Shown one piece after another: positions 515 through 34,105 of a stretch of DNA of 64,000 nt. The DNA comes from Candidatus Fermentibacterota bacterium. Lineage in GTDB: Bacteria; JAFGKV01. The stretch lies in contig JAFGKV010000186.1 of assembly GCA_016928395.1 (NCBI GenBank), forward strand, positions 599-64,598. Reading direction: 5' to 3'. Positions within the stretch are counted from its first letter, which is position 1; every line of letters starts with the position of its first letter. The notes under the pieces were generated by a model. It had not been told where the DNA came from. It saw nothing but the letters and a program-made list of their open reading frames with translations, and did not search any database. Position numbers and translations under genes: made by a program.

Positions 515-777
515 CGCGCACCTCCATGGAGGCAAGATAGAGGCCGCCTCCCAGGACGACAATGGGATCCCCAAACTACGGCGGCGGGCGTCCCGTCAAC
601 CATGCATGCCTTCCCCGCCCTGTTGGCCGTTCGAGGGCGTGCACTCCGGTTTATCGGTCCATTCATCCATGCGTGGATCCTTCGAACCCTCATCACGACT
701 CGATCCTTGACCGCGAGGCCCCCGGGCCGTCACTTGTCCCTCCGGCTGAGCGACCTCGCCCACAGAAAGGAGATGCC

Positions 778-2709: not shown

Positions 2710-2807
2710 GCAACCCTTGACAGGCCGGCCCTATACCATTCCATGATAAGGTTGCCTTGTTCTCTGTGGCGGTTTCCCCCGGCGATGCCGTCTTGAAAGG
2801 AGTATGC

Positions 2808-4836: not shown

Positions 4837-4849
4837 ACGAGGAGGAACC

Positions 4850-5716: not shown

Positions 5717-5720
5717 CGGG

Positions 5721-6680: not shown

Positions 6681-6821
6681 GCGGCACGACACCGTCCATT
6701 TCGAATAGCCCGGAGGGCTCGACTGCCTCGAAGGATCGGCTCATTCCGCGCATGAGTGAGGACGGCGCAAAGCATTCTGCTCCAAGAGCATCCCACAACC
6801 TCTCTGCTCCGAGGAACCACA

Positions 6822-9013: not shown

Positions 9014-9786
9014 GCGACGATCTTCTCGCCGCAGTCCAAGAGGTGGCCCGGGAGGCGGGAGATCTCCTAAGGCGCTCGTTTCGGCGACCCATGAGTATTT
9101 CGTATAAGGGACTCGCCAATCTAGTGACCGACGCCGACACCGCCAGTGAACGCCTCATCCGCACGGGACTCGAGCGCATACTGCCCGGCGTCTCTTTCCT
9201 CGGCGAGGAGAGCGGGGGAGATCTGTCCGTTTCGGGCCAGACCTGGGTCGTGGACCCCCTGGATGGAACCACCAACTTCGCGCACGGCTTCCCCTGGTTC
9301 TGTGTCAGTATCGCCCTGGTCGAGGAGAGCCAGCCTCTCCTGGGCGTGGTGTACCACCCCATGATGGACGAGTGTTTCATCGCCCGAAGGGGTAGTGGTG
9401 CGTTCTGCAATGGTCAGCGTCTTGCGGTTTCCACGATTCCCAGCGTGGCTGAGTCGCTCCTGACCACCGGATTCTACTATCACAAGGGTGATGAGTTGTC
9501 GCGCCAAGTCACCCTATTTCATCGCATTCACCAGAAGGCCCAGACAATCCGACGGCCGGGCAGCGCCGCCTTGGATCTTGCGTATGTGGCCGCTGGGTAC
9601 TTCGATGGCTTCTGGGAGAAGGGCCTTGCCCCGTGGGACGTAGCCGCGGGCTTCCTGCTGGTGCGCGAGGCCGGAGGAGTGGTCACGGACTACGCCGGTG
9701 CACCGGTGTCCGTCGACACGGCCGAGACGCTTGCCACCAACGGGCTGATTCACCATGCCTTGAGAATTCTCCTCCGCGGTACGTGA
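9004..9786 (+). CDS. Inositol monophosphatase family protein (SuhB-like).
   Basis: EESG, WVVDPLDGTTNF and AAG...D motifs of the IMPase/FIG family. The ATG at 9004 overlaps the previous gene's end by 10 nt. Confidence 0.8.
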   Translation: MAVGDDLLAAVQEVAREAGDLLRRSFRRPMSISYKGLANLVTDADTASERLIRTGLERILPGVSFLGEESGGDLSVSGQTWVVDPLDGTTNFAHGFPWFCVSIALVEESQPLLGVVYHPMMDECFIARRGSGAFCNGQRLAVSTIPSVAESLLTTGFYYHKGDELSRQVTLFHRIHQKAQTIRRPGSAALDLAYVAAGYFDGFWEKGLAPWDVAAGFLLVREAGGVVTDYAGAPVSVDTAETLATNGLIHHALRILLRGT

Positions 9787-9979
9787 AGAAATCCGCGGGC
9801 ACGGGTCTTGCCTGTGTCCCATGTGTGGGGCTCTGGACGGCCTGCAAAGTGAGAGGTAATTCGAAACACGACCGCATTGGTCAGTGGTGCCGTGGGTGCG
9901 GCAGGAAAGGAGGCATGTTCGGAGACGGCGCGTTCCGGTGACCCTGCGTTGCATACCGTGTTCTCCAGGAGGTGAAACA

Positions 9980-10792
9980 ATGAGGTTCTTGCTCTCTGTG
10001 GCCCTTGTGCTTGCGGCCGTCGGATCCGCCAATGCGGCAAACTGCAATGACATGCACATCATCGGCGTCACGACCGTGGCGTCCGACGGCACGGCCCAGG
10101 GCCTGTTCGACAAGATGCTCGGAGAGTCCATCTGCGTGCAGGTGCAGCTCATCGAGATCGACACCGACCTGCAGCTTGAGACTCCGGCCGACTACGATGT
10201 CCGCATACTTATCGTGGATTCAAACGGCGACACGGTCGAAACCTGCTGCTGGACCGGCGAACCCTCCCCGGGCAATTCCGTCCCGTTCTACATGGGCCCC
10301 CCGGGGTGGACCTGCTGCTATGCCCTGTCTCCCGATGATCCCATCGGCACCTACACAATCTATGTCGGTATCTTCGCTGACGACGGCAACTGCGAGATCC
10401 CGTGCGTTCCGGGAAGCTGGAACCATGCGGTGACCCAGGTCACCGGCGTGGTGCCCGTCGAGCTGTCGGCCTTCGAGGCAGCAGTCTCCGGTGCGACAGT
10501 CACGATTCGATGGGAGACCAGGTCTGAGAATGATAACCTGGGATTCTTCGTTCTCAGGTCATCCGGCACAGACGGCGACTATGTCCGCCTCGGCGAGATG
10601 ATTCCCGCCCAGGGGAGCTCATCAACCGGCGCCACCTACTCGTTCACCGACCGGCCGGGCACTTCCGGTGCCTACTTCTACCGGCTGGAGGATGTTGCCA
10701 CCGATGGCTTGACCACTCTGCACAACCCTGTCCGGGTCGTGACCGGCGACACGGCAACCTGGGGTGAGATCAAGGCATCCTTCGACAAGTAG
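9980..10792 (+). CDS. Secreted cysteine-rich hypothetical protein with a C-terminal beta-sandwich-like module.
   Basis: AGGAGGTG RBS and signal peptide MRFLLSVALVLAAVGSANA. About 10 Cys in the mature N-terminal half. The C-terminal ~90 aa (LSAFEAAVSGATVTIRWETRSENDNLGFFVLRS...YFYRLEDVATDG...HNPVRV) resembles a recurrent C-terminal domain of secreted proteins. Confidence 0.6.
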   Translation: MRFLLSVALVLAAVGSANAANCNDMHIIGVTTVASDGTAQGLFDKMLGESICVQVQLIEIDTDLQLETPADYDVRILIVDSNGDTVETCCWTGEPSPGNSVPFYMGPPGWTCCYALSPDDPIGTYTIYVGIFADDGNCEIPCVPGSWNHAVTQVTGVVPVELSAFEAAVSGATVTIRWETRSENDNLGFFVLRSSGTDGDYVRLGEMIPAQGSSSTGATYSFTDRPGTSGAYFYRLEDVATDGLTTLHNPVRVVTGDTATWGEIKASFDK

Positions 10793-10850
10793 AAATAACC
10801 GCGCCGAGTCCGAAGACCGGTGGCCCACTCCGGGCCGCCGGTCCTCCGTT

Positions 10851-10900
10851 TTCAGCGGGGGAAAGGTACGGCCATTCAGCGCGTACCACCTTGCCCCCCA
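10851..10900. terminator. Imperfect GC-rich hairpin between convergent genes; candidate bidirectional terminator.
   Basis: GGGGGAAAGGTACG...CGTACCACCTTGCCCCC imperfect inverted repeat in the 145-bp gap between the ends of the 9980-10792 (+) and 10938-12680 (-) genes. No U-tract. Confidence 0.25.
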
Positions 10901-10937
10901 AGCCTGTGGCCTGTGGCTTCGCGTGGCGTTCGACCTC

Positions 10938-12680
10938 TCAGGGGCCGTCGTCCAGCGCCCATGAGGAGCCGCCCACGGGCTCCGTCGGCATGGACAGGCT
11001 GAGCCCCATCCGGGAGATCAGCGTGTAATACCGCTGCGACCCTCCACCGGAAAGTGCATTCACGTCAAGATACGATGTGGCCTGGATGGTCGTCTGCCCG
11101 GATTGTGGTGACCAGGGCGCAGTGTGCCACCGGAGCACATAGTCGGTTGCCGGGGGATCGGGCGCCCATGTGAGCAGGAGGTCATGGTCGTTCGGCGCGC
11201 TCACCGTCACCCACGCCGGCCCAGCCAAAGGCGGGGCGTCGCCGCGTCTGAACGAGAATACTTCTGCACCAACAAGACTCGATGCCAGGAACTCCTGGAG
11301 TCCCACACCGGGGGCCGACACCACGGCGCACGTCCAGGTAAGGCCGTCATTCGCTGGCGTCTGCGCTGGATCAGGCAGGTTCGCCCATCCCGGGGCAGCG
11401 CCTCCCAGCAGGGGCACCTGGAACGAGGTCACCGACGCAGGCCCGACCACCTCCCACACCAATGAATCCAGGCCGGCGCCCGAGCGATCTTCCAGCGTAA
11501 ACGAGGAGACTTCCCAGTCGGCAGCGGGAGTACCTGCCGCCTGGTACCCGCCAAAAGTGAACTCGTCCCCCGCGCGGATGAGATCCGGCGGCAGGTAGAA
11601 GGCTTCGAATAGGCGGGTTGCGCCAGGCGTCAGGGCAGTCCAGTCGAATGCTCCACCGCCCCAGGTGGGATGCTCCGAGGTGTCGGAGTATGCCACGCCC
11701 GAGTAGGCATCTAGGTCGGCAAACACGCCGGAGGCAGGCAGATATGAAAGGGACACCGTGGTGTCGATCCCCGCGCGGCACTGGACGCCGTGCAGCGGCA
11801 CAAAACGGTCCTTACGCGGACTGGTAGTCAGCTCGCCAAGGCAGGCCACATAGCCCTGGCTCCCCCCCGGCACTCCGCTCACTGTGACCTGTATGCCATG
11901 CACAAAGCCTGTGGTACAGGTGTGATTGATGACGGCGTCGCCCGAAACGGCGTAGTTGCGCGATGCGGTTCCACTCGTCGCGACAAGCTGGAGGGGATTG
12001 CCGGCGATGAGATCATCGACGCTGACCCGATACCCCAGACAGATCATATCCACGGTGCTCCCGGTGCGGAAGCGCTGGGTATACGGCTCCTTGAAGAAGT
12101 TCACTACATACATCTCTGTCTGACTCGGGATGTCGATGTTCTCAGGAATCGGGATATCGGCATTGACGGGCCACCCGATATGCATCGTGTCCATGAAGGA
12201 TGACATCAGGACGCCTGCGTCGCCGCTTAGAAGCTGCTCCGGAGCGATGGCGCCCATGACGATACCCATGTCCAGAAAACCGTCGGTGTTCACCAGGGGC
12301 AGCCCTCGCACGACGCCCGAGATCAGCGAAGTGTCCGGCCATTGTTGGACGACACAGGGATCGCACCACAGCGTCAGGGTGCCCACAGGACAGTCCAGCA
12401 CCGTGAGTCTCGCATACCCTGCGGGCGCCGCGGTCACGGAAAGCCCGGCAACCAGGGCCGGATCGCTCAGAACGACCAGTCCATCACCTCCGGTGATCCC
12501 CCAGTTGCCCGGGAAGGGATCATCCGGGGCGGCACCGATCTGTAGGTAGACCCCCGACAGCGGCTGGTCGGTCTGCCGATCCCGCACAGTCACGGTGAGC
12601 TGATCTGCCGAACCCGCCACGCACAAAGTCGCCAGCATCATCACCGCGAGGAATGGAATGCGGCAATCGGTCCTCATCAT
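10938..12680 (-). CDS. Secreted hypothetical protein with a C-terminal fibronectin-III-like domain; last gene of the glycan gene train.
   Basis: Signal peptide MMRTDCRIPFLAVMMLATLCVAGSAD at the ATG at 12680 (the first 79 codons of the tracked ORF were rejected). C-terminus VTVSAPNDHDLLLTWAPDPPATDYVLRWH is FN3-like. There is a 10-nt gap to the upstream GWxTD gene. Confidence 0.6.
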   Translation of the reverse strand: MMRTDCRIPFLAVMMLATLCVAGSADQLTVTVRDRQTDQPLSGVYLQIGAAPDDPFPGNWGITGGDGLVVLSDPALVAGLSVTAAPAGYARLTVLDCPVGTLTLWCDPCVVQQWPDTSLISGVVRGLPLVNTDGFLDMGIVMGAIAPEQLLSGDAGVLMSSFMDTMHIGWPVNADIPIPENIDIPSQTEMYVVNFFKEPYTQRFRTGSTVDMICLGYRVSVDDLIAGNPLQLVATSGTASRNYAVSGDAVINHTCTTGFVHGIQVTVSGVPGGSQGYVACLGELTTSPRKDRFVPLHGVQCRAGIDTTVSLSYLPASGVFADLDAYSGVAYSDTSEHPTWGGGAFDWTALTPGATRLFEAFYLPPDLIRAGDEFTFGGYQAAGTPAADWEVSSFTLEDRSGAGLDSLVWEVVGPASVTSFQVPLLGGAAPGWANLPDPAQTPANDGLTWTCAVVSAPGVGLQEFLASSLVGAEVFSFRRGDAPPLAGPAWVTVSAPNDHDLLLTWAPDPPATDYVLRWHTAPWSPQSGQTTIQATSYLDVNALSGGGSQRYYTLISRMGLSLSMPTEPVGGSSWALDDGP

Positions 12681-12690
12681 GGCGCGTCTC

Positions 12691-13893
12691 CTACCATCGG
12701 GACAGGTCGCCCTGGACCATATCGTACCGGCCGAAACCCGTACGATCCACGAAGACGAACTCTCGCTTGAGCGAGTGGTAGCTCCAGATCTCGTACGGCT
12801 TGTTGTTGCGGTCAAACGGATGGCGTTCGATATCGTCGGGAGGGCCGAAGCGGACATGGACCATTCCCATGTCCGTCTTCCACCCCTCTTCGAATGCTGA
12901 AAAGTTGTCGTTGGCATACATGATCCGCGCCTCGTACATTTCTACCAGTTCATTGCGGGGTGTCGACGGCACTGGATCGTGCTCGACCCAGTACGCGTGC
13001 CAGAACTCTGTCCGGTCTTGGGGCGCAAGCTTCTTGAATCTGCGTACCTCGTCCTTCTCGGCGATGTAGCTCAGGAGCCGGTGGGCATCATCATACCTAT
13101 TCACCATGGTCCAGATAGACCATGGTACTACCATGTGCCTGGCTGTCGTAGTGGGATCGTGCGTTCCCACGCTCATCTGCACTTGGTAGCTTCCTGCCTC
13201 CAGCCGGGTGACGCCAAGGAACATCTCAACCATGGTCAGTGCTCCGGAAACCAGAATACTGTCGCTCTGCTCTATCCTGCTCTTGCCCCGAGCATCGGAG
13301 ACCTCCACCCGCACGGGAAGCACGGTCTCGGAGGTATCTCCGAATGCATAAAGCTCCGCGGCCACCGTCAAAGCGCCGCATGGGTCAGGCAGCGTGTCGG
13401 AGAGTGCCTGCCGGTCCTCCATGCATCCGAGCAACATAAGAGAGCTGAGTTGCAGGCCCGACGATTTGGGAGGCTCCATCACCAGCGTCTGCTGACGCGT
13501 TCCGCTTCGCTTGTTTTCACGGTCTTCCATCGTGACGCTGACGACATAGCTGCCGGGCGGAAGTCTCAATCGGATCTCCTCATGGGCAAGCATATTGCGA
13601 GCATTGGTTTCGGCGAACGAGAAGACCTGAACCGCGCCGCTAAGATTCCCCGTGTGCACCCGTTCCCCCTTATCCGTTGCAATCCGGTATGAGGCGGTGT
13701 AGGTGGCGGTGAAGCCGTCCTCGCCCTTCACGAAGAGGAGTTCGTCATAGGCAAGGGAGATGCGTATCTTCGCGTAGGGGCCTTCCTCGGGTTCCCAATA
13801 GCTTGCAGCCTCCACTTGGAAGGGAAGGGAGGCAGGTTGAGACCACGCCCAACCGGCGTGTGTGAGGGCTGCGAGTATGATGAGTCGATTCAT
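12691..13893 (-). CDS. GWxTD-domain protein (secreted).
   Basis: Signal peptide MNRLIILAALTHAGWAWSQ. The literal motif GWKTDMG sits near the C-terminus within a ~100-aa conserved-looking block. The start overlaps the upstream gene's stop (ATGA at 13890-13893). Confidence 0.75.
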   Translation of the reverse strand: MNRLIILAALTHAGWAWSQPASLPFQVEAASYWEPEEGPYAKIRISLAYDELLFVKGEDGFTATYTASYRIATDKGERVHTGNLSGAVQVFSFAETNARNMLAHEEIRLRLPPGSYVVSVTMEDRENKRSGTRQQTLVMEPPKSSGLQLSSLMLLGCMEDRQALSDTLPDPCGALTVAAELYAFGDTSETVLPVRVEVSDARGKSRIEQSDSILVSGALTMVEMFLGVTRLEAGSYQVQMSVGTHDPTTTARHMVVPWSIWTMVNRYDDAHRLLSYIAEKDEVRRFKKLAPQDRTEFWHAYWVEHDPVPSTPRNELVEMYEARIMYANDNFSAFEEGWKTDMGMVHVRFGPPDDIERHPFDRNNKPYEIWSYHSLKREFVFVDRTGFGRYDMVQGDLSRW

Positions 13894-16187
13894 GAGTTCT
13901 CTCCTGGCATGAGACTGGTGTTGGGACGAGTGGATCCACCCATGAGCGCCGATGCGATGAGCCGAAGGGAGCCCAAGAGAATCCGCACGTCAGTGCCGAG
14001 GTTGATGCTGTTCAGGTACGCAAGGTCATACTTCAGCTTGTCTGAGGCTTCCGAATCATATCGCCCGTGTACCTGTGCCAATCCGGTGAGACCGGGCCTC
14101 ACCACAAGCCGCCGTTGATAGGCAGGGTCACCCCGGGTGAACACCTCCACGAACTCCGGTCGCTCGGGCCGTGGCCCGACGAAACTCATCTCTCCTTTGA
14201 GGATATTGATGAGCTGCGGAATCTCATCGAGATGGGTGCTCCTGAGAAATCCCCCGAAACGCACGATCCTCGGGTCGTCAGCAGAGGCCAGCACCGGGCC
14301 CGACTCCTTCTCGGCATCAGCAATCATCGTACGGAACTTCAGCAACACAAACTGCTTGCCTCGCCGCCCCACGCGAACCTGTCTGTACAAGGCCGGCCCG
14401 GGGCTTGAGAGCTTCGTGCTGAGCATCACCAGCGCACACACCCAAGAGGTCAGCAGGAGGCCCGCCCCGCTGGCCACTACATCCAGGCCGCGCTTGACCG
14501 TACGATACCACCCGGAGAGAGGATCGGTGGGCAGCTTGATCAGCGGCATGCCAGCCAGGTTGGTCAGCTCGACCCTGCCGATGAGGATCTCGTACAGCCC
14601 TGGCACGATGCTGACGCGTGCGCCTCGGTATTCGCAGCTGGCGATTACCTCAATGAGCCGGTGTGGGGGCCACGAGTCCACCGCAATGATGACTTCGGTG
14701 AGTGCGTAGCGATGCAGCACCGCTGCGATGCCATCGGCCTGGCCCAAGACGGGTGCCCCCACCGATTCGGGACCCGATGTAGAGACGAACCCCACGAATC
14801 GTGAGCCGACCCCGAGACGTCCCCCCAGTTCGCGGGCAAGCCTCTGGGCGGCATCTCCGGTGCCGATGATGCCGACGCGAACGACACCGCGTTTCCGCGT
14901 CGGCCGCGAGAGCAGTGCGGTTCGCACGACAGCCAACGGCGCGACTGCCAGGATCAAACCCAGTGCGAACACCGATCGGGGGAAGGGAAAGGTGAGCGTG
15001 GCGAAACGCCGCGACACGAAGTTCGCCAGCACGAACACGCCTGCAGCCACGGTGAGCGCTCGCGCCACCTGATATGCCAACTGCACCATGTCTCTGTCAT
15101 GTTCCTCGTCGTAGAGTCGCGCGCCCCACAGCACCAGAATCGTGATGCCCGTCAGCACGGGGGAAGCGTGGAGGAACGCATCGAAGTGAGGCTGGACCAC
15201 GCCCCCCAGTTTCAGGTAGAACGCCGCCACCTGGGTTAGGTTGATACACACTGCGTCCAGCGCCATGATAGCCAACACTCTGACAACCGGCGCAATACCG
15301 TCGATGATGCCCCTCGCCAATACCCCGAAGGATACGAGCCAGTTAAGCGGCCGGGCCAGCGTACCGGCGAAGTGCTTGTTGTGGAAGAGCAGCATCGCCC
15401 GGTGGAACTCGTACGTGCTGCGCAGCTTGTTACGCTTGCTCAGCCCGCCTTTGTAGTGGATAATCTCCGCAGCCGGGTTGTACAGCACCTTCCACCCGTG
15501 CCGCCGGGCGCGAAGACACCAGTCCAACTCCTCGCCGTACAAAAAGAACTGCTCATCCAACGCACCAACCGTCAGCAACACCTCCGGTCGGAACATGAGA
15601 AACGAGCCGGACACTGCGTCCACTTCGGTCTCCCTGGCATCATCCTTGAAAGTCAGGTTGTACCTGGCGAACCGAACGCTGGAGGGTCGAAGCTTCGCCA
15701 GCCCGATCATCCGATAGAACGCTACCGCGGGCGTGGGAATCGATCGCCGGCAGGCGAGCTGCAGGGTAAGATCGGGATTGAGCACGCGGCAACCCGCGAT
15801 GCCCGCCTCCGGATGGGCATCCATGAAGCGCACCATGTCCGATAAGGCATCACCCAGGACGCGGGTGTCGGGGTTCATCAGCAGCACGTAGCGACCTGTG
15901 CAGAAAGGGAACGCCTGGTTGTTGGCCCGGGCAAAGCCGACATTCTCGCTGTTGGCCAGAACGGTGACCTGGGGATAGCGTGTTCTGACCATGTCGGCGC
16001 TGCCATCCGTCGATGCGTTATCGACAAGGGTCACGTGCACGCTGATGCCCTCGGTGTGTCCGAACACCGAATCCAGGCATTCTTCCAGATAGTCGATTCC
16101 ATTCCAGTTGACGATGACCACGGAGAGATCAGGTGGCACGCCTGGGTCCGGCACTGGCCGCGCCTTGGGTGCCGCTGCATCGTTCAT
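13890..16187 (-). CDS. Fusion protein: N-terminal GT2 glycosyltransferase joined to a C-terminal polyprenyl-phosphate sugar phosphotransferase (WbaP / bacterial sugar transferase family).
   Basis: N-terminus: VVIVNWNG...LVDNASTDGS...DxD-like GT2 features. Middle: multiple TM helices. C-terminus: KRGLDVVASGAGLLLTSW...LLKFRTM...PGLTGLAQV, the hallmark of the exopolysaccharide-priming transferase family. The ATG at 16187 is preferred; an alternative start is at 16229. Confidence 0.8.
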   Translation of the reverse strand: MNDAAAPKARPVPDPGVPPDLSVVIVNWNGIDYLEECLDSVFGHTEGISVHVTLVDNASTDGSADMVRTRYPQVTVLANSENVGFARANNQAFPFCTGRYVLLMNPDTRVLGDALSDMVRFMDAHPEAGIAGCRVLNPDLTLQLACRRSIPTPAVAFYRMIGLAKLRPSSVRFARYNLTFKDDARETEVDAVSGSFLMFRPEVLLTVGALDEQFFLYGEELDWCLRARRHGWKVLYNPAAEIIHYKGGLSKRNKLRSTYEFHRAMLLFHNKHFAGTLARPLNWLVSFGVLARGIIDGIAPVVRVLAIMALDAVCINLTQVAAFYLKLGGVVQPHFDAFLHASPVLTGITILVLWGARLYDEEHDRDMVQLAYQVARALTVAAGVFVLANFVSRRFATLTFPFPRSVFALGLILAVAPLAVVRTALLSRPTRKRGVVRVGIIGTGDAAQRLARELGGRLGVGSRFVGFVSTSGPESVGAPVLGQADGIAAVLHRYALTEVIIAVDSWPPHRLIEVIASCEYRGARVSIVPGLYEILIGRVELTNLAGMPLIKLPTDPLSGWYRTVKRGLDVVASGAGLLLTSWVCALVMLSTKLSSPGPALYRQVRVGRRGKQFVLLKFRTMIADAEKESGPVLASADDPRIVRFGGFLRSTHLDEIPQLINILKGEMSFVGPRPERPEFVEVFTRGDPAYQRRLVVRPGLTGLAQVHGRYDSEASDKLKYDLAYLNSINLGTDVRILLGSLRLIASALMGGSTRPNTSLMPGENS

Positions 16188-17689
16188 GGTGCCGCTCCCG
16201 GCCCGGGACGGCTCCTCGAAGCCAACCATGAGATCAACCGTCCGGCGTCATGCAAGGCCAGAGTCGGCTCGCCCCGCCATACCGCTACGCGTGACCGTAG
16301 CCGTTTCGCCACGCGCGGCAGGGCCGCGTTGTAGTGATGGAAGCGTGCGTGCATGGCGGACTCCACGGTTGAGTAGCTGACCCCGGGCGGCAGAATCATC
16401 CCTCTGTCATCGCGGATGAAGTAATAGTCGTGGGGGCTCATGCGGAAGTACGCATCCCGCGGCATGGTCTCCATCACGACACCCCTCTCCAATGCCCAGT
16501 CGAACAAAGCTGTCCCCGGGAACGCCTCATAGCCCGAAAGACTTGCAAAATCCGGCGCCAGCTCCCGCATAAATCTATCTGTCGCGTGGACATCTTCCAG
16601 GCTTTCTCCCGGTAGCCCCATCATGAAGTACGCAGTCCAATGCAGGCCAGATCTTCGCAGCATTGCCGCGGCATCTCGAATCCGAGCAGCGCTCAGCGAT
16701 CGATCAAGCCTCTGCATCATGGGTTCCGACCCGGTCTCTACGCCCACCTTGACTCCCCGGCATCCCAACCCACGCATCGCCGATAGCAGTCGCTCGTCAA
16801 TCCTGTCCACCCGGGTCACGCAGTCCCATGTCATGCCGCGTCGATGCAGAAGCTCGGCGATAGCCAGCGTCCGCTTCGCATCCAGGGTAAACACATCGTC
16901 TTTGAAGGCCACATGGCGAACACCCTGCCTCGTGATCTCGTCAAACTCTGCCTCCAGGACCTCCAAGGGGACCAGTCGCACACGCCGCCGCCACAGCCCC
17001 TTGGTGAAGCAGTAGGTGCAGCCAAAAGGACAGCCCCGCGACGTCATCACCAGGCCCAGATCCTCGCGAGAGTATGATCCCCGGACGAAAAGGTCGCGGG
17101 TAGGGTGCCCCAGGCGCTCGAGAGCCGCCGGGGGGACCTCGGTGATGCAGTTACCGGTCCTGGTCACCAGCCCCGGTGTCTCCCTTCCCAACGTCTCAAT
17201 CGCGGCACGGTCTTCTACCAGGATCGTTCCCAATACCGGCTCACCCTCCCCTACAACAACCCCATCGACTTCAGGAGCGTTCTCCAGAATCTCCATGGGC
17301 CGCACCATGGCGTGGGGGCCTCCCACGACGATGGGCACGTGGGGGAGCCTCGCGCGTACCCTCGATGCAACCTGCATCACCGAGGCCATCTTCGCGGTCA
17401 GCGCCGAGATGCCAACCCACTGGGGCCGGGTCACGGCCAGGGTATGGTCAAGCTCCTTCCAGATGGGGGATCCCTCATCGGCGACCCCTGCGGAGTAGTC
17501 GGGATAGCGTCGAGGTAAGCCTTGGTAGTCGACGCCTCGAGCGCGAGCATCGTGGTCGGCGTCGTAGACCAACGGCTCGTGGCCCAAGGCGCGGGCGTGA
17601 GCCGCAAGGGTGGCCAGACCATACGGGAAGTAGCGGGTGAGAAAGCCCATGAATCGGTAGAACGGAGGGTCTATCAGCAGGATCCGCAT
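16184..17689 (-). CDS. Cobalamin (B12)-binding radical SAM protein (class B radical SAM).
   Basis: N-terminal B12-binding Rossmann region (MRILLIDPPFYRF...YFPYGLATLAAHARALGHEPLVYDADHD) followed by the CPFGCTYC CxxxCxxC radical-SAM cluster motif. Start at 17689 preceded by GAGGT; the 91-codon upstream extension in the ORF track is Arg/Gly-rich and was rejected. Confidence 0.85.
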   Translation of the reverse strand: MRILLIDPPFYRFMGFLTRYFPYGLATLAAHARALGHEPLVYDADHDARARGVDYQGLPRRYPDYSAGVADEGSPIWKELDHTLAVTRPQWVGISALTAKMASVMQVASRVRARLPHVPIVVGGPHAMVRPMEILENAPEVDGVVVGEGEPVLGTILVEDRAAIETLGRETPGLVTRTGNCITEVPPAALERLGHPTRDLFVRGSYSREDLGLVMTSRGCPFGCTYCFTKGLWRRRVRLVPLEVLEAEFDEITRQGVRHVAFKDDVFTLDAKRTLAIAELLHRRGMTWDCVTRVDRIDERLLSAMRGLGCRGVKVGVETGSEPMMQRLDRSLSAARIRDAAAMLRRSGLHWTAYFMMGLPGESLEDVHATDRFMRELAPDFASLSGYEAFPGTALFDWALERGVVMETMPRDAYFRMSPHDYYFIRDDRGMILPPGVSYSTVESAMHARFHHYNAALPRVAKRLRSRVAVWRGEPTLALHDAGRLISWLASRSRPGPGAAP

Positions 17690-18585
17690 GCCAACCTCGG
17701 CGACAGGCAGGCCTTGAGCACCGCCATGTGCTCGGCGCGATGGGCGCCAGGCATGGACACCAGTGAGTAGCCGCACAAGAGGGCACGAACCCCCGACCTC
17801 TGAAATGCATTGCCGTGGCGCTGGAAGTAGCGAAGCGCACTGATCGCCCGATGGCGATGGGCCCGGGCCGTCCGACTCGGCGCGCTGCCTCCAATGACGT
17901 GTCCTGCCGTGGCCGTGGGTGTGAACCCTACGGCCCAGCCCGCGTTCCACAACCGACGGCACAGATCCTTTTCTTCGTAGTAGAGGAAAAAACCCGGGTC
18001 AAGGGGACCGGCATCGAAGAGGGCTGCGCGACGAAGCATGAAACAGGCGCCGCTCACCATTTCGACCTCCCGCTCGACCGTGTGGGGATCAAGCTGGCCA
18101 AAGACGTCGGCCAGTTTGGTTCGGCCCAGCGCACGCTTTGCGGCCGGCGGCACCCTTCCCGCTACGCCCAGAAGATGCCCGGCGAGCTGCACGAGAGTTG
18201 GGAGCCGGTAGCTGCTGGTCTGCAGGGTTCCGTTCGGATTGCACAGTCTAGGCCCCGCCAGGGCCATACGGGGGTGGCGGAGCAGGAAGGCAACCAGCGC
18301 TCCGACAGCACCGTCACCCAGTGTTGTATCCGGGTTAGCCACGAGGAGGAATTCGTTATCCAGTAGTGCAAAACCACGGTTCACACCCCGCGCAAACCCC
18401 AGGTTGCGGCAGGGCTCGTCCCAGACCACCGAAGCGCCGAAGCCGGCTTTCAGATTCATGGGTACCGGGTGGGAGTCATGATTGACCACCACCGTTCGAT
18501 GCACCTGGGGAACCAAGGCACTAAGGCACCTGAACAACAGGTCGAAGGAACCATAGTGCACCACCACGGCCCCGACATTCAGCAT
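17674..18585 (-). CDS. GT2-family glycosyltransferase.
   Basis: VVVHYGS...LVANPDTTL...EEKDLCRRL pattern of GT-A fold family 2 enzymes. Overlaps neighbours on both sides. Confidence 0.75.
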   Translation of the reverse strand: MLNVGAVVVHYGSFDLLFRCLSALVPQVHRTVVVNHDSHPVPMNLKAGFGASVVWDEPCRNLGFARGVNRGFALLDNEFLLVANPDTTLGDGAVGALVAFLLRHPRMALAGPRLCNPNGTLQTSSYRLPTLVQLAGHLLGVAGRVPPAAKRALGRTKLADVFGQLDPHTVEREVEMVSGACFMLRRAALFDAGPLDPGFFLYYEEKDLCRRLWNAGWAVGFTPTATAGHVIGGSAPSRTARAHRHRAISALRYFQRHGNAFQRSGVRALLCGYSLVSMPGAHRAEHMAVLKACLSPRLACGSC

Positions 18586-19223
18586 GGCAGTCTCCGGTAG
18601 CGAATCCGGTAGAAGAGAGTCTTCACCGTCTCATTGAAGACCCGCACCAATCCATCCTCGTTCTGCCACCATGGCTGATAGTCCACCTCCGGTACGGGCG
18701 CGGCCGCCACATGAACGACGATTCCCCTGGATTCCAGCACTCGGCCGAGTATCCAGCGTGACCGGGCGCTATGATAACTGGAGGTGACGAAAATGAGCCT
18801 TCGAAGCCCTCGACCCCCGGCCCAGGCCGCCGCGGCCTCTGCTTCGTCCAGGGTGCTTGCCACGGGACCGGGCAACACGACAACGCATGAATCGGCTATC
18901 CCCAACGTGGACAGAATGCCGCAGGCGATGACATCCTCGGGAGGAGCCAGCCCCAACCTGACCACGGCGCTGCTCTCAGGCCTTGCCATGGCAACGATGG
19001 GGGCGCGCCCCTCCCGCATGAGCGCTGCCGCATAGGCGGTGCGGGGAAGCACCTCCCCCAGCAGGATAAACACTGCATCCGCCCGTGCGGGCAGCTGTTC
19101 CCAGTGCTGGAGCCGTTCTCCCCAAAGCCGCAGCAGGTGGTGGGGCCGGTAGGCCAGATAGACGCACAGGCCGAGGGCAACCCCGGCGAGAAGCGAGAAT
19201 CGCACCGGTCGGGGTGCAGTCAT
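18579..19223 (-). CDS. DUF218 (YdcF/ElyC/SanA-like) envelope-biogenesis-associated protein.
   Basis: N-terminal TM helix (FSLLAGVALGLCVYLAY), then ADAVFILLGEV...R...APIVAM...VTSSYHSARS, typical of DUF218. The ATG at 19223 overlaps the upstream stop (ATGA); the longer 300-aa ORF was rejected. Confidence 0.65.
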   Translation of the reverse strand: MTAPRPVRFSLLAGVALGLCVYLAYRPHHLLRLWGERLQHWEQLPARADAVFILLGEVLPRTAYAAALMREGRAPIVAMARPESSAVVRLGLAPPEDVIACGILSTLGIADSCVVVLPGPVASTLDEAEAAAAWAGGRGLRRLIFVTSSYHSARSRWILGRVLESRGIVVHVAAAPVPEVDYQPWWQNEDGLVRVFNETVKTLFYRIRYRRLPC

Positions 19224-20173
19224 CCCAGCTTCCCGACGGTCACCGGCCATGGCATGAAGCCAATCACCATCCACGGAGCAATGCGCCGGGCGAACAACCC
19301 CAGCCGAGGCGTCCTCCGGTGCAGGGAGGGGCGGACCCGCACCGCCGCACACTTTGCCCGAGACACCGCGCGCCCGCGTCCCGCTGCGATGTGGCGGAGT
19401 AGACTGGCTATCTGGTAGCACCCATGCAATGGTCCCAGCGCAGGCCAGAGCACCCAGGGCGTATTGTGCCAAAACGCCCACTCCAGATTCCGTTGCGCTA
19501 GCGACAAAAGCAGGCCGGGCGTACGGCGCAGCGTTTGCCCTCCCAGATGCTCCACCACCGCACCGGGATGCAGCAGGCAGGAGTAGCCGGCATACCGCAG
19601 GCGCAAGGCAAGGTCAATGTCCTCGTCTTGCGCGAAGTACGCCCGGTCAAAGCCCCCCACTTCCATGAAGGCGTCTCGGCGGTAGATCGCTGCCCCGCCG
19701 CTGGCTCCGAAAACCTCCACGGCGTGGGGGGGGAGTTGGCAGGTCAACCGCCCCTCCATGCATCTGCGCCCTACTCCCCAGATGGTCCAGCGCAGGCCAG
19801 CTGACTCAACTACCCCTTCGGGCGAGAGAATCACCGATGCACACGAGCCGACAGCATCCCACCCAAAGACCGACTCCGCCGTTGCCAGCCATGCCTGATG
19901 TGGCCGTGCGTCATTGTTCAAGAAGGCGATAAGGTCAGCGCAAGACGCCTCGGCCCCCGCCTGCGCACCTCCCGCAAATCCGGCATTGGTGGAAAGCCGT
20001 ACCACTCGAATACGGGGATACTCTGAGCCAAGCCACGCGTCGGTCTCGTCGGTCGAGCCATTGTCCACCACCACGATGCCGTCAGCGACCCGTGTCTGGG
20101 CGGCCAGCGCATCCAAACACGACCCCAACAGGTGCCTGCCGTTCCACGAAGGAATGATGACGTCGATTCTCAT
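19220..20173 (-). CDS. GT2-family glycosyltransferase.
   Basis: MRIDVIIPSWNG...VVVDNGSTDETD...DEDIDLALR motifs. The start at 20173 overlaps the rlmN stop (ATGA). Confidence 0.75.
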   Translation of the reverse strand: MRIDVIIPSWNGRHLLGSCLDALAAQTRVADGIVVVDNGSTDETDAWLGSEYPRIRVVRLSTNAGFAGGAQAGAEASCADLIAFLNNDARPHQAWLATAESVFGWDAVGSCASVILSPEGVVESAGLRWTIWGVGRRCMEGRLTCQLPPHAVEVFGASGGAAIYRRDAFMEVGGFDRAYFAQDEDIDLALRLRYAGYSCLLHPGAVVEHLGGQTLRRTPGLLLSLAQRNLEWAFWHNTPWVLWPALGPLHGCYQIASLLRHIAAGRGRAVSRAKCAAVRVRPSLHRRTPRLGLFARRIAPWMVIGFMPWPVTVGKLG

Positions 20174-21294
20174 GGCACGGCTGGACCAGACGGTGTACAG
20201 GCACCGCCGGCCAATTGGCCGCATGCCGCTGCGATGTCACGACCCATGCTCTGACGCAAAGTCACGGCCCGGGGCCCGGGTTGCAGCCACTCCATGAACT
20301 GGCGCGTTCTGTGCGGCGACGATGCGCGGAACTCCCCATCGCCTGCATCGTTGAACACGATAAGGTTAATCTTGCAGGCGAGGTTGGTGGCCAGGGATGA
20401 CAAGGCCCGAGCACAGGACGGGGTATCGTTGATTCCCTCAAGAAGCACATACTCCAGGGTGATCGTTGCTTTGGTGGCCGCCGCATACTGCTTCAATGCA
20501 GGTACGACCTCGGCCAGCGGAGGGGCCTTGGGCATGAGTGAGAGCCGCAGCGACTCCCACGGGGCATTGAGACTGAGCGCAAGGCGAGGCTTCAGCCCTG
20601 ATTCGGCCAGGGCACGAATTCCGTCGGGAATACCGCAGGTGCTTACCGTGATGCGCCGGGAGGCATAGCCGAAACCGTGTTCCCAGACCAAGACGCGAAT
20701 CGCCTCGATGACCGGCCGAGGCTCCAGCAGGGGTTCTCCCATCCCCATGAACACCACATGCGTCGGCCTCGACAGCCCAGCCCCGGCCGGCTGCGGTCGT
20801 TGGATCGCCAAGAGCTGTTCCAGGATCTCTCCGGTGCCAAGGGTACGCCCGCGCCCCCGTCGCCCGGTGACGCAGAAGACGCAGGCCATGGGGCACCCTG
20901 TTTGGGAGGATAGACATACCGTGGTGCGTCGCGCCGCCGGAAGATGCACCGTCTCCACGGCGTCACCTGAAGCGAACTGCACCAGCACCTTGCATGATCC
21001 GTCTGTTGACGTGGAGGACACCTCGATGGCTGCTCTTCGGACACACCACTCCTGGGCGAGACGGCGCCTCAGCACTGCCGAAACATCGCTCATCCCGTCG
21101 ATATCTTCTACATCGTGCTGGTACAGCCACCGGGCGATCTGCGAGGCTCGGAACGGACGCTCGCCCAGTCTTTGTGCCAACTCCCCAAGCCCTGTTCTAC
21201 CCAGGTCGCGTATGTCGGCAGCGGCCGACCCCTGCCAACCCTGCTCTGCGCAATCGCCGTACGCCGGTGGGTTCTCGGTGTGTCGGCAATTCAT
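20170..21294 (-). CDS. rlmN: 23S rRNA (adenine2503-C2)/tRNA methyltransferase RlmN (radical SAM).
   Basis: FRASQIARWLYQ N-terminal domain, CLSSQTGCPMACVFCVTG radical-SAM motif, GMGEPL, and C-terminal DIAAACGQL. It is embedded head-to-tail in the glycosyltransferase train. Confidence 0.85.
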   Translation of the reverse strand: MNCRHTENPPAYGDCAEQGWQGSAAADIRDLGRTGLGELAQRLGERPFRASQIARWLYQHDVEDIDGMSDVSAVLRRRLAQEWCVRRAAIEVSSTSTDGSCKVLVQFASGDAVETVHLPAARRTTVCLSSQTGCPMACVFCVTGRRGRGRTLGTGEILEQLLAIQRPQPAGAGLSRPTHVVFMGMGEPLLEPRPVIEAIRVLVWEHGFGYASRRITVSTCGIPDGIRALAESGLKPRLALSLNAPWESLRLSLMPKAPPLAEVVPALKQYAAATKATITLEYVLLEGINDTPSCARALSSLATNLACKINLIVFNDAGDGEFRASSPHRTRQFMEWLQPGPRAVTLRQSMGRDIAAACGQLAGGACTPSGPAVP

Positions 21295-21332
21295 CGAGTG
21301 CTTCGCCCTGGAGCCTATCTGCGTAGGTCCAT

Positions 21333-23747
21333 TCACCGTGTTGAGAGCACCAGAGCGCTCAGAGGAGGCACCTCCAGACGCACCGCTCCCGCGTACTGGT
21401 TCGCCTCACCTTCTCCCCATCGCCTGAGCAGGCGCTTCACCGCCAGACTCTGTAGGCTCACCTGGCCTGACCATTCGTGCTCCGTCAGGTTGAACGCTAT
21501 GACGGCATAGTCATCGAAGAACGCCCGAGCCATGACCAGAACGTGGTCCTCGATATGAAGCGGAAGGAAGTCACCGAAGGACAGTGCGGGGATGTCCCGC
21601 TTGAGCCGACCCAAGGCCCTCATGGATGCGAGGTGCATGTGCTCATCGGTGGATAGCTCATCGCCGAACCGCATCATCCGCCGGTTGTCAGGGTCAGCCG
21701 CACCCGGCATGCCGATCTCATCGCCATAGTAGAGCACGGGAATGCCGGGGATGGACAGGTTGAACAGGAAGAAGAGCTGCATCCGCCGGTACACGATGGG
21801 ATCGCGCACCGTCACCTCGTTCGTCCAGCCCCATCGGCGTTCGTCTGCGCCGGGAGGCATGTCGCCCTGGGCCAGGGTCACGAATCGCACCTGGTCGTGG
21901 CTACCGGTGACATTTGCCATCATGTGCAGGGGCCCGAAGGAGTCCAGCGACTGGTCCAGCTCCCGGATCACCTGGACGAACGATGCGCCGGGGCGGCCGC
22001 AGAAGAGAGGCCGGGAGGCATAGTAGAGGTTGAAATCGAACTGGCCATCCATCTCGGCGGGGCAGACATAGCTGCCCACCAGAGCACGCGAACCAAAAGT
22101 TTCTCCGATCTGGAGGAGGGGTTGGTGTGGCGAAGCCTCACGAAGCCCGGCGGTCAGTGCGCGCCAGAATCCGTGGGGAATGTGCTTGGTGGCATCGTGC
22201 CGGAATCCGTCGAGATCGAAGGTGGTGAGCCACCATGCTGCGGAGCAGACCATCGAGTCCACGCCAGGAGCGCCCAAGGAGAGATCCAAGGTCGGAAGGA
22301 ACGGGTCAAACCAGGTGGATAGGCGATGCTCGTCCCAGTGGCGCAGGTTGAGCGTACCGTCGGGCAGCGTGAGGTTCTGGAATAGACTGGGATGCTCGGT
22401 CGCCCACGGGTGATCAACATGGACATGATGCGGCACCAGATCTAGGATCACGCGGAGACCGCGGGCATGGGCCGCGGCTACCAGATCCCGCATCAGCGCG
22501 ACAGCCCCAAATCGAGACTCGATGGCGCGGTCGGCGGCCGGCCAATATCCGTGATACCCGCTATAGGCCATGGCTGCCGGAAACTCGGCATCGGGAATGG
22601 GGAGCCGGCGCGCCCCGAAGTAGGGATCAACGGATTCGGTCAGGAGCGAGTCCAGGGCCTCGACTGAGAGACCGCGCATCTCGTTCGTGTACTCCAGCGG
22701 CGAGATAGCGGCCTTCTCAGGACCCGGGTAGAGCGGACCCATCCACAGAGTACTCACACCCAACGAGTCGAAATAGCCCTCGTCCAGCGTGTGCCTCACC
22801 CCCGCCAGATCTCCGCCCTGGTAGTTGACCAGATGATGCACCCCCGGATGGCACAAAGGCCTGTCATTGGAGGGATCTCCGTTGCGGAACCGGTCAGGGA
22901 AGAGACTGTAGATGAGACTGTCGTAGAACCCCGCATCAGCCCCGGGCCGGCCGCGGGGCTGACCATGGTCCAGCCAGGTCCAGCATTCGGGCAAAGGTCG
23001 GCTCTGCGCGTCGAGACCAAGAATCCGAAGCAGGCCTCCCCCTTGGGGCGTGACCCGGAGCAGCCCCTCTTCGTAGCTGAATGGAGCTTCCAGCCCATCC
23101 AGGAGCACAAAGACTGCTTCGGGGGAATCGTCCGGGGGATACAGCGAGAAGGTCAGCGTACCATCCTGGTGGCCTGTTTTCAGGAACCGACGGGTCGAGG
23201 TACCCAGGCCGATATGAATGACCGAGTTATGGCCACCCAGCCCATCATCCACACGGTCGGGATTGGTCGGATCCGCGATCCACGAGCCGTCAACGACGAA
23301 CTTGTAATGATAGGTTCCAGGACTCAAGGCAAGGCGCGAGTGGAAGCTGCCGTCGACGCATTCCATGGGGTTGGCCGTTGCGCTCCAGCCGTTGAATGAG
23401 CCCGCAACGAACGCCGATGACGGCGCGGGTTCCTGGCACGAGTAGACCAACTCGACATCGGCCATGGGCCTGCGTTCCACCGGAATCACCATCGAGCGGC
23501 CCAAAGCTCTCAGCTGGACAAGCCCGAGCGTGCCGCCTTCACCGGCGGCGTTCAGCACCAATGAGTCGCCCTCAACGCACGCGTCGATGCCCTCTGGACA
23601 ACCTTCAACGATCCACGGACCCGGTTGCGACCAGGCCGAGAGGTCCAATGTCTCCGGCCGGGCGCCAATGAGACGAATCGTAGGCGGGAAGGGCGAGGCC
23701 GCAATAGAGGCCGTTGCCAGTACTCCCGTAAGAAACAGTCGCCACAT
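21333..23747 (-). CDS. GH13 alpha-amylase-family enzyme with an N-terminal CBM48/E-set glycogen-binding module (pullulanase/amylase-like), secreted.
   Basis: Signal peptide MWRLFLTGVLATASIAASP at 23747. FNGWS...YHYKFVVDGSWIADPTNP CBM48-like block. Catalytic GFRHDATKH, the EMDGQ region and the YYGDEIG motif of GH13. Confidence 0.85.
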   Translation of the reverse strand: MWRLFLTGVLATASIAASPFPPTIRLIGARPETLDLSAWSQPGPWIVEGCPEGIDACVEGDSLVLNAAGEGGTLGLVQLRALGRSMVIPVERRPMADVELVYSCQEPAPSSAFVAGSFNGWSATANPMECVDGSFHSRLALSPGTYHYKFVVDGSWIADPTNPDRVDDGLGGHNSVIHIGLGTSTRRFLKTGHQDGTLTFSLYPPDDSPEAVFVLLDGLEAPFSYEEGLLRVTPQGGGLLRILGLDAQSRPLPECWTWLDHGQPRGRPGADAGFYDSLIYSLFPDRFRNGDPSNDRPLCHPGVHHLVNYQGGDLAGVRHTLDEGYFDSLGVSTLWMGPLYPGPEKAAISPLEYTNEMRGLSVEALDSLLTESVDPYFGARRLPIPDAEFPAAMAYSGYHGYWPAADRAIESRFGAVALMRDLVAAAHARGLRVILDLVPHHVHVDHPWATEHPSLFQNLTLPDGTLNLRHWDEHRLSTWFDPFLPTLDLSLGAPGVDSMVCSAAWWLTTFDLDGFRHDATKHIPHGFWRALTAGLREASPHQPLLQIGETFGSRALVGSYVCPAEMDGQFDFNLYYASRPLFCGRPGASFVQVIRELDQSLDSFGPLHMMANVTGSHDQVRFVTLAQGDMPPGADERRWGWTNEVTVRDPIVYRRMQLFFLFNLSIPGIPVLYYGDEIGMPGAADPDNRRMMRFGDELSTDEHMHLASMRALGRLKRDIPALSFGDFLPLHIEDHVLVMARAFFDDYAVIAFNLTEHEWSGQVSLQSLAVKRLLRRWGEGEANQYAGAVRLEVPPLSALVLSTR

Positions 23748-24172
23748 AGAATCCTCCTCCTCGGCCAAGGGCCGCTCCAAAGCACTCGCCTCGTGAGTGC
23801 TGACGATTCATCCGACTGCGGTGCAGGGCCAAGCACTGCCCCTTCCAGACACTAGGTGCAGCGGGCGGCGGCTTTCGGCACGGACACGCCGGGTGACACA
23901 CCCATACCCGTGGTCACAGGGCGGGCATGAGGCAGCGACCGGGCCTCATCACCCTTGCACAAGGATGGATCAGACAGTAGCCTCCCCGGGCAGGTGCTGC
24001 CGCCGTCAGCGCTATCGTCTCTCGCGCCACAACCCATCGAGACTCGGCATCTTTGTCCATCAATCCTTGCGTGGGGGGTCCCTGACGGGCCCAGTCGGAT
24101 GATCGAGAGAGACCAACCCCATCTTACACTGCGGTCGAGAAAGCGGCAAGAGCCCTCAGGAGGTGTGCAAAG

Positions 24173-34067: not shown

Positions 34068-34105
34068 TGGCCTCATTCCCTCCTGTGCACAGCGCCTCCT
34101 GACCC

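Follow-up and report, generated by a model that had tools for sequence, protein, structure and literature searches.

A putative envelope-glycan gene train of Candidatus Fermentibacter places a B12-type radical-SAM enzyme beside a bifunctional priming transferase

Candidatus Fermentibacter is an abundant, uncultured fermenter of digesters and sediments that belongs to the phylum Fermentibacterota of the FCB group. Here, we analyzed a 64,000-nucleotide stretch of a genome of this lineage (assembly GCA_016928395.1, contig JAFGKV010000186.1, positions 599 to 64,598; referred to below as the window, with coordinates counted from its first letter), in which nine long open reading frames (ORFs) run head to tail on the minus strand from 10938 to 23780, or from 10938 to 23747 with the start codons chosen. 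The ORF map agrees with a preliminary description of this DNA as to the nine genes and their positions. On balance, we read this train as a single long operon shared by Candidatus Fermentibacter and its relatives, with a five-gene glycan module at its heart that comprises genes for two family-2 glycosyltransferases (GT2a and GT2b), a DUF218 protein, a B12-type radical S-adenosylmethionine (radical-SAM) enzyme, and a fusion of a GT2 domain to a phosphoglycosyl transferase (PGT). The locus is a candidate envelope-glycan route in Fermentibacter, and the adjacency of its radical-SAM gene to a PGT gene recurs in other phyla.

The gene train

From its first gene to its last, the train is made up as follows.

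21333-23747, minus strand: GH13 alpha-amylase-family enzyme, secreted, with a CBM48-like domain at its N-terminus; opens the train
20170-21336, minus strand: rlmN, dual-specificity RNA methyltransferase (a radical-SAM enzyme; TIGR00048, RlmN_N and Radical_SAM domains)
19220-20173, minus strand: GT2a, family-2 glycosyltransferase, soluble or peripheral (Pfam Glycos_transf_2, 71.1 bits)
18579-19223, minus strand: DUF218 protein, membrane anchored, of SanA/ElyC-like architecture (PF02698, 39.7 against a cut-off of 27.6)
17674-18585, minus strand: GT2b, family-2 glycosyltransferase, member of the conserved core (Pfam Glyco_tranf_2_3, 40.5 bits)
16184-17689, minus strand: radical-SAM enzyme with a B12-binding domain (Pfam), 501 amino acids (aa), the proposed glycan-tailoring step
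13890-16187, minus strand: bifunctional GT2 and large monotopic PGT, 765 aa (GT2, CoA_binding_3 and Bac_transf domains)
12691-13893, minus strand: GWxTD protein (TIGR04514), secreted, 400 aa, with a signal peptide, two beta-sandwich domains and a C-terminal GWxTD domain
10938-12680, minus strand: secreted protein of a rare family, 580 aa, with a hydrophobic N-terminus; last gene of the train

With the start codons of the preliminary description, the eight junctions measure -4, -4, -4, -7, -16, -4, -4, and +10 nt, so that seven are overlaps of 4 to 16 nt and one is a 10-nt gap. The seven coupled junctions listed earlier all hold, and there is an eighth: the GH13 stop at 21333 overlaps the longest rlmN start, GTG 21336, by 4 nt (ATG 21294 is also a possible rlmN start). 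Shine-Dalgarno-like GGAG or AGGAG motifs stand 8 to 13 nt upstream of the GH13 gene and of five of the seven internal starts examined. Three of the proteins match database records exactly in length (the fusion at 765 aa, the radical-SAM enzyme at 501 aa, and the GWxTD protein at 400 aa), and the fusion and the radical-SAM enzyme are 100% identical to NCBI records named Candidatus Fermentibacter.

Searches with Pfam and NCBIfam bear out eight of the nine labels of the preliminary description, and the domain assignments pass the curated cut-offs. The same searches agree that none of the nine products is a Wzx, Wzy, or Wzz protein, an ABC transporter, or the product of a sugar-nucleotide gene. 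In Pfam, Polysacc_synt, Wzy_C, and Wzz have no match among the nine products and may lie elsewhere in the genome, and no Wzm/Wzt-type ABC-2 exporter adjoins the glycosyltransferase (GT) genes within the train.

The fusion protein scores 195 bits against Bac_transf, 81.3 bits against Glycos_transf_2 at its N-terminus, and 29 bits against CoA_binding_3 (PF13727); its score of 365.7 against TIGR03025 (cut-off, 295.55) identifies an initiating polyprenyl-phosphate PGT. Hydrophobic segments span residues 284-426 and 570-588, and the DEIPQ dyad motif and the PRP motif are intact. The protein therefore has the marks of a large and bifunctional monotopic PGT: the Asp-Glu dyad, a transmembrane (TM) bundle, the PF13727 domain of unknown function (DUF), and an extra catalytic domain. 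In large PGTs, the PF13727 domain serves in uridine-nucleotide binding and dimerization (PMC10942596). The preliminary description had counted this fusion among the unusual features of the train; a glycosyltransferase fused to a monotopic PGT is, however, the recognized bifunctional monoPGT class (PMC11626204), and full-length GT2-PGT fusions of 30 to 38% identity are widespread in the FCB group and beyond the host lineage (Bacteroidota, Ignavibacteria, Marinimicrobia, Latescibacterota, and Fibrobacterota). In three independent Bacteroidota- or Ignavibacteria-type contexts (L003, 10001-13056; L004/L005, 10001-12993; L006/L007, 9277-12962), homologues of 30 to 35% identity lie directly upstream of accA, with a small GT2 of ~238 aa just upstream of the fusion in two of the three (L003 and L006/L007) and with neither a radical-SAM nor a GWxTD neighbor in any of them. 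This order of fusion and accA looks like a conserved housekeeping arrangement of the FCB group.

At the Kyte-Doolittle threshold applied, neither of the two separate GT2 enzymes shows a hydrophobic segment, and they are therefore not processive synthases; the synteny of GT2a is confined to Fermentibacter-like loci. The DUF218 protein has a single N-terminal hydrophobic helix (residues 7-25), as in SanA, and ElyC and SanA, which are DUF218 proteins of Escherichia coli, have effects on pathways of undecaprenyl-linked precursors (PMC3879167, PMC8609368, PMC12176290).

Conservation of the unit and its core

Synteny had been named in the preliminary description as one test that could refute its reading, and it holds at three further loci. 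The full nine-gene order is kept in L001 (GCA_900174595.1) and L011, with identities of 57 to 81% that are even over the nine genes, and in L091 (GCA_030620115.1), gene order is retained from rlmN through to the last gene at 51 to 72% identity, with a GT2 gene in place of GH13 upstream of rlmN. An island of horizontal origin was considered and rejected because GC content is uniform along the train and identity to the relatives is even across all nine genes.

A distant locus, L002, shows what is kept longest. There, GT2b (44% identity), directly followed by the radical-SAM gene (43%), and the fusion (61/45%) alone remain of the train, accompanied over 598-12497 by genes for a PIG-L deacetylase, a Wzy_C-TPR protein of 859 aa, and an arylsulfotransferase. 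Because only these three survive in L002, the conserved core is GT2b, radical-SAM, and GT2-PGT. GT2a, DUF218, rlmN, the GWxTD gene, and the 580-aa gene have been added at about the level of a family, and GH13 is the least stable.

The radical-SAM family and its genomic company

The radical-SAM enzyme scores 57.7 against the B12-binding domain PF02310 (cut-off, 32.1) and 86.8 against PF04055 (Radical_SAM), with a CPFGCTYC motif from residue 220; the B12-binding Rossmann domain and the CxxxCxxC core together give it the layout of class B radical-SAM enzymes. Cobalamin binding and methyl transfer may go with that layout, and the nearest solved relative, AprD4, is alike in layout yet cobalamin-free (PMC12931638). 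No NCBIfam equivalog cut-off is reached; scores were as follows.

ApyD: score 152, cut-off 750
HpnJ (TIGR03471): score 111, cut-off 577.6
AprD4 (NF033070): score 111, cut-off 500
BchE: score 110, cut-off 481
PhpK: score 108, cut-off 600

Solved structures ranked as follows.

AprD4 (PDB 6FD2): profile E value 3.1e-41, single-sequence E value 1.9e-28; best match
QCMT (PDB 9CCB): profile E value 4e-30; second-best match
TokK: profile E value 2e-23
CysS: profile E value 4e-20
OxsB: profile E value 1e-19

AprD4 is a cobalamin-free sugar diol-dehydratase, and QCMT and TokK are true cobalamin methylases (PMC12931638). Because the best relative dehydrates a sugar diol whereas QCMT and TokK methylate with cobalamin, both C-methylation and deoxygenation or rearrangement stay open as candidate chemistries. 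The C-methylated glycan of the preliminary description is thus one option and is not favored over the others; the closest solved relative is AprD4.

Members of this family are ~500 aa long and share 37 to 68% full-length identity across phyla, with those at 37 to 42% coming from Planctomycetota, Elusimicrobia, Deltaproteobacteria, Schekmanbacteria, a Parcubacteria-group bacterium, and a Solirubrobacterales bacterium. The family is tight: mean column identity in the alignment is 59%, and 59 columns are invariant. Three orthologue contexts picked solely for the length of their contigs (from Elusimicrobia, Planctomycetota, and unclassified metagenome contigs) all lie within glycan clusters that have a Bac_transf gene 1.5 to 5 kb downstream. 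At L018, the radical-SAM gene is directly upstream of an orthologue of the GT2 domain of the fusion. At L095 (7995-10905), the orthologue abuts a large PGT (CoA_binding_3 and Bac_transf) in an isolated two-gene pair flanked by a comM-like Mg-chelatase gene and dapF.

Overall, of the 10 orthologue loci examined, 8 contain a PGT, and the other two have a fusion-type GT2 directly downstream. When the radical-SAM profile was run against metagenomes, most of the matches were distant paralogues, which served as a negative control and not as orthologues; among 78 loci of these B12 radical-SAM paralogues, none had a PGT, a contrast that is indicative rather than a statistic because many of the paralogue contigs are short. 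A limited literature search found no B12 radical-SAM enzyme that acts on a lipid-linked glycan or in a polysaccharide pathway, and in the main text of a 2026 review of B12 radical-SAM enzymes, the words "glycan," "polysaccharide," and "sugar" never occur (PMC12931638).

In L001, the closest syntenic relative, another B12-binding radical-SAM gene, shorter at 441 aa, is found at 15284-16609, convergent to the end of the train and beside a gene for a ResB/cytochrome c assembly fusion; the matching position in the window lacks it.

The two secreted proteins

The GWxTD protein belongs to the TIGR04514/PF20094 family (112.3 bits; cut-off, 28), with GWKTD at residue 337, and residues G337, W338, and D341 are invariant in 48 sequences. 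In an AlphaFold model (pLDDT, 82), the N-terminal beta-sandwiches are good and the GWxTD domain is moderate; the sandwiches weakly resemble matrix-scaffold FnIII folds such as RbmA (TM score, ~0.2), and the GWxTD domain had no fold match. A sequence search of the PDB, a literature search for "GWxTD," and an exact look-up of the protein of the window each returned nothing. The family is conserved over its full length (400 to 440 aa) in KSB1, Ignavibacteria, and Bacteroidota, and in two independent contexts from other phyla (L092/L093, 6658-10185; L094, 6554-10341), the gene lies between an LD-carboxypeptidase gene (Peptidase_S66) and a gene for a radical-SAM methylthiotransferase of the MiaB/RimO type, with which it either overlaps or abuts directly. 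Given that context, GWxTD is not in general a gene of glycan clusters. The L092 context is a few kilobases from mreB-mreC-pbp2-rodA, and this setting hints that GWxTD proteins serve in housekeeping of the cell wall or envelope.

The 580-aa protein encoded at the end of the train has no match in Pfam or NCBIfam. Its earlier label, "FN3," was dropped: neither the whole protein nor its C-terminal 153 aa matches any Pfam family, fn3 included, even at an E value of ≤10, and the PDB gave one weak match (FN3 chain 2dkm; phmmer E value, 0.27). The family is rare, with 197 relatives at an E value of ≤1e-3 among 1.84 billion representatives; relatives have a CarboxypepD_reg-like N-terminus and, in some cases, an FlgD_ig C-terminus.

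Both genes are syntenic in L001, L011, and L091, and both products are secreted envelope proteins whose link to the glycan is putative and lineage specific. They might be true members of the pathway, either as periplasmic or outer-membrane handling factors or as glycosylated acceptors, and we regard this as unlikely, although it fares better than the other alternatives weighed below. Secretion fits such roles, as does synteny with the core in all four Fermentibacter-like genomes, where the junctions range from a 4-nt overlap to a 45-nt gap, and the RbmA-like sandwiches may be counted with these. However, both genes are absent from L002 and from all radical-SAM loci outside Fermentibacter, GWxTD has its different conserved context elsewhere and a domain without a fold match, and neither protein shows enrichment of D[ST][AILVMT], the O-glycosylation motif of Bacteroidota.

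GH13, rlmN, and the genomic setting

The first gene of the train encodes a GH13 enzyme (Pfam Alpha-amylase, 106.7 bits; AMPK1_CBM, 47.8 bits) with a signal-peptide-like N-terminus and AGGAGG upstream of ATG 23747. Secreted and equipped with a starch-binding-type module, it is most simply, and probably, a catabolic, co-transcribed passenger; it is syntenic in L001 and L011.

RlmN scores 303.5 against TIGR00048 (cut-off, 290) and ~176 against the Cfr models, far under their cut-offs. Its motifs CLSSQTGCPMACVFC and AACGQL were found, and its cysteines are intact (C-x6-C-x3-C-x2-C at 141-155 and AACGQL at 370), with the C118-type, CxxxCxxC, and C355-type residues all present. Because all catalytic cysteines are present and the RlmN model is passed, rlmN would most simply be a housekeeping gene carried as a co-transcribed passenger. 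A diverged paralogue with a new role was considered, but neither the motifs nor the HMM score support it.

Two features bound the train.

10815-10843: candidate bidirectional terminator (terminator-like scan), a GC-rich 12-pair hairpin followed by a T-rich run, between the convergent end of the train and a plus-strand 302-aa ORF
23748-24172: divergent intergenic region between GH13 and hemE (ORF map, hemE Pfam match), presumed promoter region

The terminator function of the hairpin is predicted from its form and position. Upstream of the train, 23748-24172 is the sole sizeable noncoding gap; a scan found no sigma-70-like site in it, and inside the train, scans for sigma-70 promoters and terminators gave results not above the shuffled expectation, the scans being uninformative for the host phylum. 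Rfam gave neither a cobalamin riboswitch nor any other element near the train.

On the divergent side, the train is flanked by hemE and an SLT-LysM transglycosylase gene, and on the convergent side by argS, a nucleoside phosphorylase gene (PNP), a PfkB kinase gene, lnt, a C26 amidotransferase gene, and an IMPase gene. These six plus-strand genes are functionally unrelated, and the junctions of their own train measure +13, +4, ≤+75, -16, and -10 nt. Overlapping junctions are thus a habit of this genome. Because an unrelated housekeeping train next door is equally tight, tight packing alone is not meaningful for function, and such junctions are not special to the glycan train. The overlaps support co-transcription and give no proof of common function; more generally, tight operon packing in streamlined genomes is a poor guide to function.

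Other observations concern the remainder of the window. A gene for a beta-helix protein is followed by genes for an ABC_tran ATPase and two ABC2_membrane_6 permeases (whole group, 30892-35901); the ABC set (32763-35901) lies ~9 kb past the GH13 end of the train. A second group of glycan genes lies at the window edge, past which it may run: an S-adenosylmethionine-dependent methyltransferase (60995-61813), a GT4 (61678-62919), and a GT2 (62838-63875). RNase P RNA (class A, 273 bits) and tRNA-Val(CAC) lie at 53409-53886 and 52536-52611, respectively. Because the longest ORF call of relA/spoT, with its start at 53772, runs into the 3' portion of this RNase P RNA, its true start is probably further downstream. 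GC content dips to 0.58 to 0.60 at 48000-52000, against ~0.62 to 0.64 elsewhere in the window. A secreted protein with CarboxypepD_reg and Laminin_G_3 domains is encoded at 50452-51495, and a DUF4143/AAA_14 ATPase at 40402-41604 lies upstream of several ORFs without a family match.

Interpretation

We propose that the module would act on the cytoplasmic side of the inner membrane. As the first step, the large monotopic PGT domain would move a sugar-1-phosphate from a UDP-sugar onto polyprenyl phosphate, the fused GT2 domain would put on the second sugar, and GT2a and GT2b could add up to two further sugars, for a chain of at most about four. The radical-SAM enzyme would alter one sugar by radical chemistry, either C-methylation or an AprD4-like deoxygenation, on a nucleotide sugar or a lipid-linked intermediate close to the priming step. 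The membrane-anchored DUF218 protein may, on the analogy of E. coli ElyC and SanA, modulate the flux or pool of the polyprenyl-linked intermediate. Flipping, polymerization, or ligation and transfer to the final acceptor would be carried out by genes elsewhere in the genome. Of this picture, the order of the genes, their domains and intact catalytic motifs, the synteny, and the cross-phylum adjacency of radical-SAM and PGT genes are observed, and co-transcription, substrates, chemistry, and final acceptor are inferred. What survives of the preliminary description is a train that forms a real unit conserved within its lineage and, as part of it, a glycan-assembly module that lacks the textbook export and polymerization genes and includes an uncharacterized B12-type radical-SAM enzyme.

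More tentatively, and with more doubt than attaches to the operon itself, we suggest that the ~500-aa B12 radical-SAM family may represent an unrecognized step that crosses phyla, in which radical chemistry (C-methylation, deoxygenation, or rearrangement) acts on the first sugar or sugars of a polyprenyl-diphosphate-linked oligosaccharide in a physical or functional partnership with the priming PGT. If so, the Fermentibacter train would be an elaborate instance of this tailoring step and the radical-SAM/PGT pair of L095 a minimal one. The family, found beside a priming transferase in Fermentibacterota, Planctomycetota, Elusimicrobia, and unclassified metagenome contigs, is a concrete and testable candidate for both glycobiology and radical-SAM enzymology, and the two-gene pair of L095 is a good candidate for heterologous testing.

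Several points weigh against these proposals. As seen, the pathway is incomplete, with no flippase, polymerase, ligase, or sugar-nucleotide gene in the train, and co-transcription is predicted from spacing alone. That rlmN is a passenger is an assumption: its position is kept in all four syntenic genomes, and at L091, it has GT2 genes on either side. In our lineage, the GWxTD and 580-aa genes are as syntenic as the core and hence may be pathway members. The many short contigs in the paralogue control inflate the contrast of 10/10 with 0/78. Finally, five of six Planctomycetota loci that have homologues of the GT2 domain are without a radical-SAM gene, a gap that fits an optional tailoring enzyme yet weakens the linkage.

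Rather than a sugar, the radical-SAM enzyme could modify a membrane lipid, the polyprenyl carrier, or a secreted protein, for example GWxTD or the 580-aa product. The best NCBIfam match, at 152 bits, is ApyD, an enzyme of ribosomally synthesized and posttranslationally modified peptides (RiPPs), other matches include lipid enzymes (the ladderane B12 radical-SAM enzyme and HpnR/HpnJ), and two secreted proteins come next in the operon; QCMT, the second-best solved relative, methylates a protein (PMC12931638). All of these NCBIfam scores are far under the family cut-offs, however, and orthologues in other phyla lack GWxTD or 580-aa neighbors but keep a PGT or GT. With no conserved partner resembling a precursor peptide, and with a sugar-acting enzyme, AprD4, as the top solved relative, we judge a nonsugar substrate distinctly unlikely.

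Less probable still is an operon of convenience, in which streamlining has packed together GT2, radical-SAM, and PGT genes that serve separate processes. The argS-to-IMPase train demonstrates that overlapping, tightly packed genes of this genome can be unrelated, and in other phyla, the fusion adjoins accA and GWxTD lies between MiaB-like and LD-carboxypeptidase genes. Against this, adjacency of the radical-SAM gene to a PGT or GT recurs in independent phyla and includes a minimal pair; since that recurrence is hard to explain otherwise, a functional link is favored.

The reading that we find hardly credible is the widest one, offered in the preliminary description, in which all nine genes form a single pathway for a C-methylated surface glycan that anchors type IX secretion system (T9SS) cargo. 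The host does have at least one T9SS-type cargo protein: of the two peptidases said to carry T9SS signals, the M1 peptidase at 778-2709 passes TIGR04183 at the borderline (23.3; cut-off, 23), whereas no such signal is seen in 1-514, which is the N-terminus of a minus-strand S8-like peptidase whose C-terminus is outside the window. T9SS C-terminal domains often register as FlgD_ig, and a domain of that type ends some relatives of the 580-aa protein. The linker of Porphyromonas gingivalis is built by one WbaP-type initiator and three glycosyltransferases, matching the one PGT and three GT2 domains here (PMC13086638). The resemblance is an analogy only: the train has no T9SS component and no Wbp/Vim-type genes for the linking sugar (PMC13086638), and a T9SS C-terminal domain is missing from the GWxTD protein and from the 580-aa protein alike. 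Nor is a single pathway of all nine genes supported, with GH13 absent from L091, GWxTD unlinked to glycan clusters outside the lineage, a housekeeping train packed as tightly nearby, and C-methylation no more favored than other chemistries. Moreover, members of the radical-SAM family are found in Planctomycetota, Elusimicrobia, and a Parcubacteria-group bacterium, groups that, to our knowledge, are not known to have a T9SS.

Comparison with known systems

The proposed glycan module shares parts with several described pathways. The single anchor glycan that has been defined, that of P. gingivalis, is a pentasaccharide built on undecaprenyl diphosphate by WbaP and three glycosyltransferases, with Wbp/Vim genes for the linking sugar (PMC13086638). 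Its A-LS/A-LPS pathway, which has the glycosyltransferases GtfC, GtfF, and VimF, is like the train in having one WbaP-type initiator and three glycosyltransferases, and the host of the train has T9SS-type cargo; it differs in being without a radical-SAM enzyme, and the radical-SAM family of the train is found outside the FCB group as well. With respect to genes for the linking sugar of the Wbp/Vim (SAGA) type, Pfam gave no aminotransferase, dehydrogenase, or acyltransferase domain in the train. A synthase-dependent polysaccharide system differs in another way, as the train has no processive GT2 with multiple TM segments by the Kyte-Doolittle measure.

The hopanoid trio HpnI/HpnK/HpnJ offers a parallel in its logic, since a GT2, a deacetylase, and a radical-SAM enzyme act there in turn on a lipid-linked sugar, and L002 has PIG-L, GT2, and B12 radical-SAM genes in a row. 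No hopanoid genes are present here, however; the lipid is presumably polyprenyl phosphate, and the score against the HpnJ model is far below its cut-off.

Among enzymes, AprD4, which acts in the C3' deoxygenation of apramycin, is the best solved relative of the radical-SAM enzyme and shares with it an N-terminal Rossmann-like domain, and its substrate is a sugar ring. It differs in being cobalamin-free (PMC12931638) and in working on a soluble aminoglycoside with a partner, AprD3, and the train has no such partner. The class B radical-SAM methyltransferases (QCMT, TokK, CysS, and the GenK type) are alike in the N-terminal B12-binding domain, which in the train enzyme is above the Pfam cut-off, and in the CxxxCxxC core. 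No matched PDB or NCBIfam enzyme is named as acting on a polysaccharide, and the genomic partner of the train enzyme is a priming PGT.

Wzx/Wzy-type loci for O-antigen and exopolysaccharide that start from a WbaP-class PGT resemble the train in the Bac_transf domain with its Asp-Glu dyad, the four-helix TM region, PF13727, and stepwise additions by GT2 enzymes (PMC10942596). The train differs in being without Wzx, Wzy, Wzz/PCP, OPX, and sugar-nucleotide genes, in the extra N-terminal GT2 of its PGT, and in the B12-type radical-SAM gene embedded in it. Bifunctional monoPGTs resemble the fusion in having a GT domain fused N-terminally to a monoPGT (PMC11626204, PMC10942596), although in the train the GT2 is joined to a complete large PGT (TM bundle, DUF, and core) rather than to a bare core, and distant FCB homologues of the fusion adjoin accA. 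Taken together, the train combines a known kind of pathway, polyprenyl-phosphate-based glycan assembly with a bifunctional PGT, with a member of an uncharacterized B12-type radical-SAM family that is found with priming transferases in several phyla.

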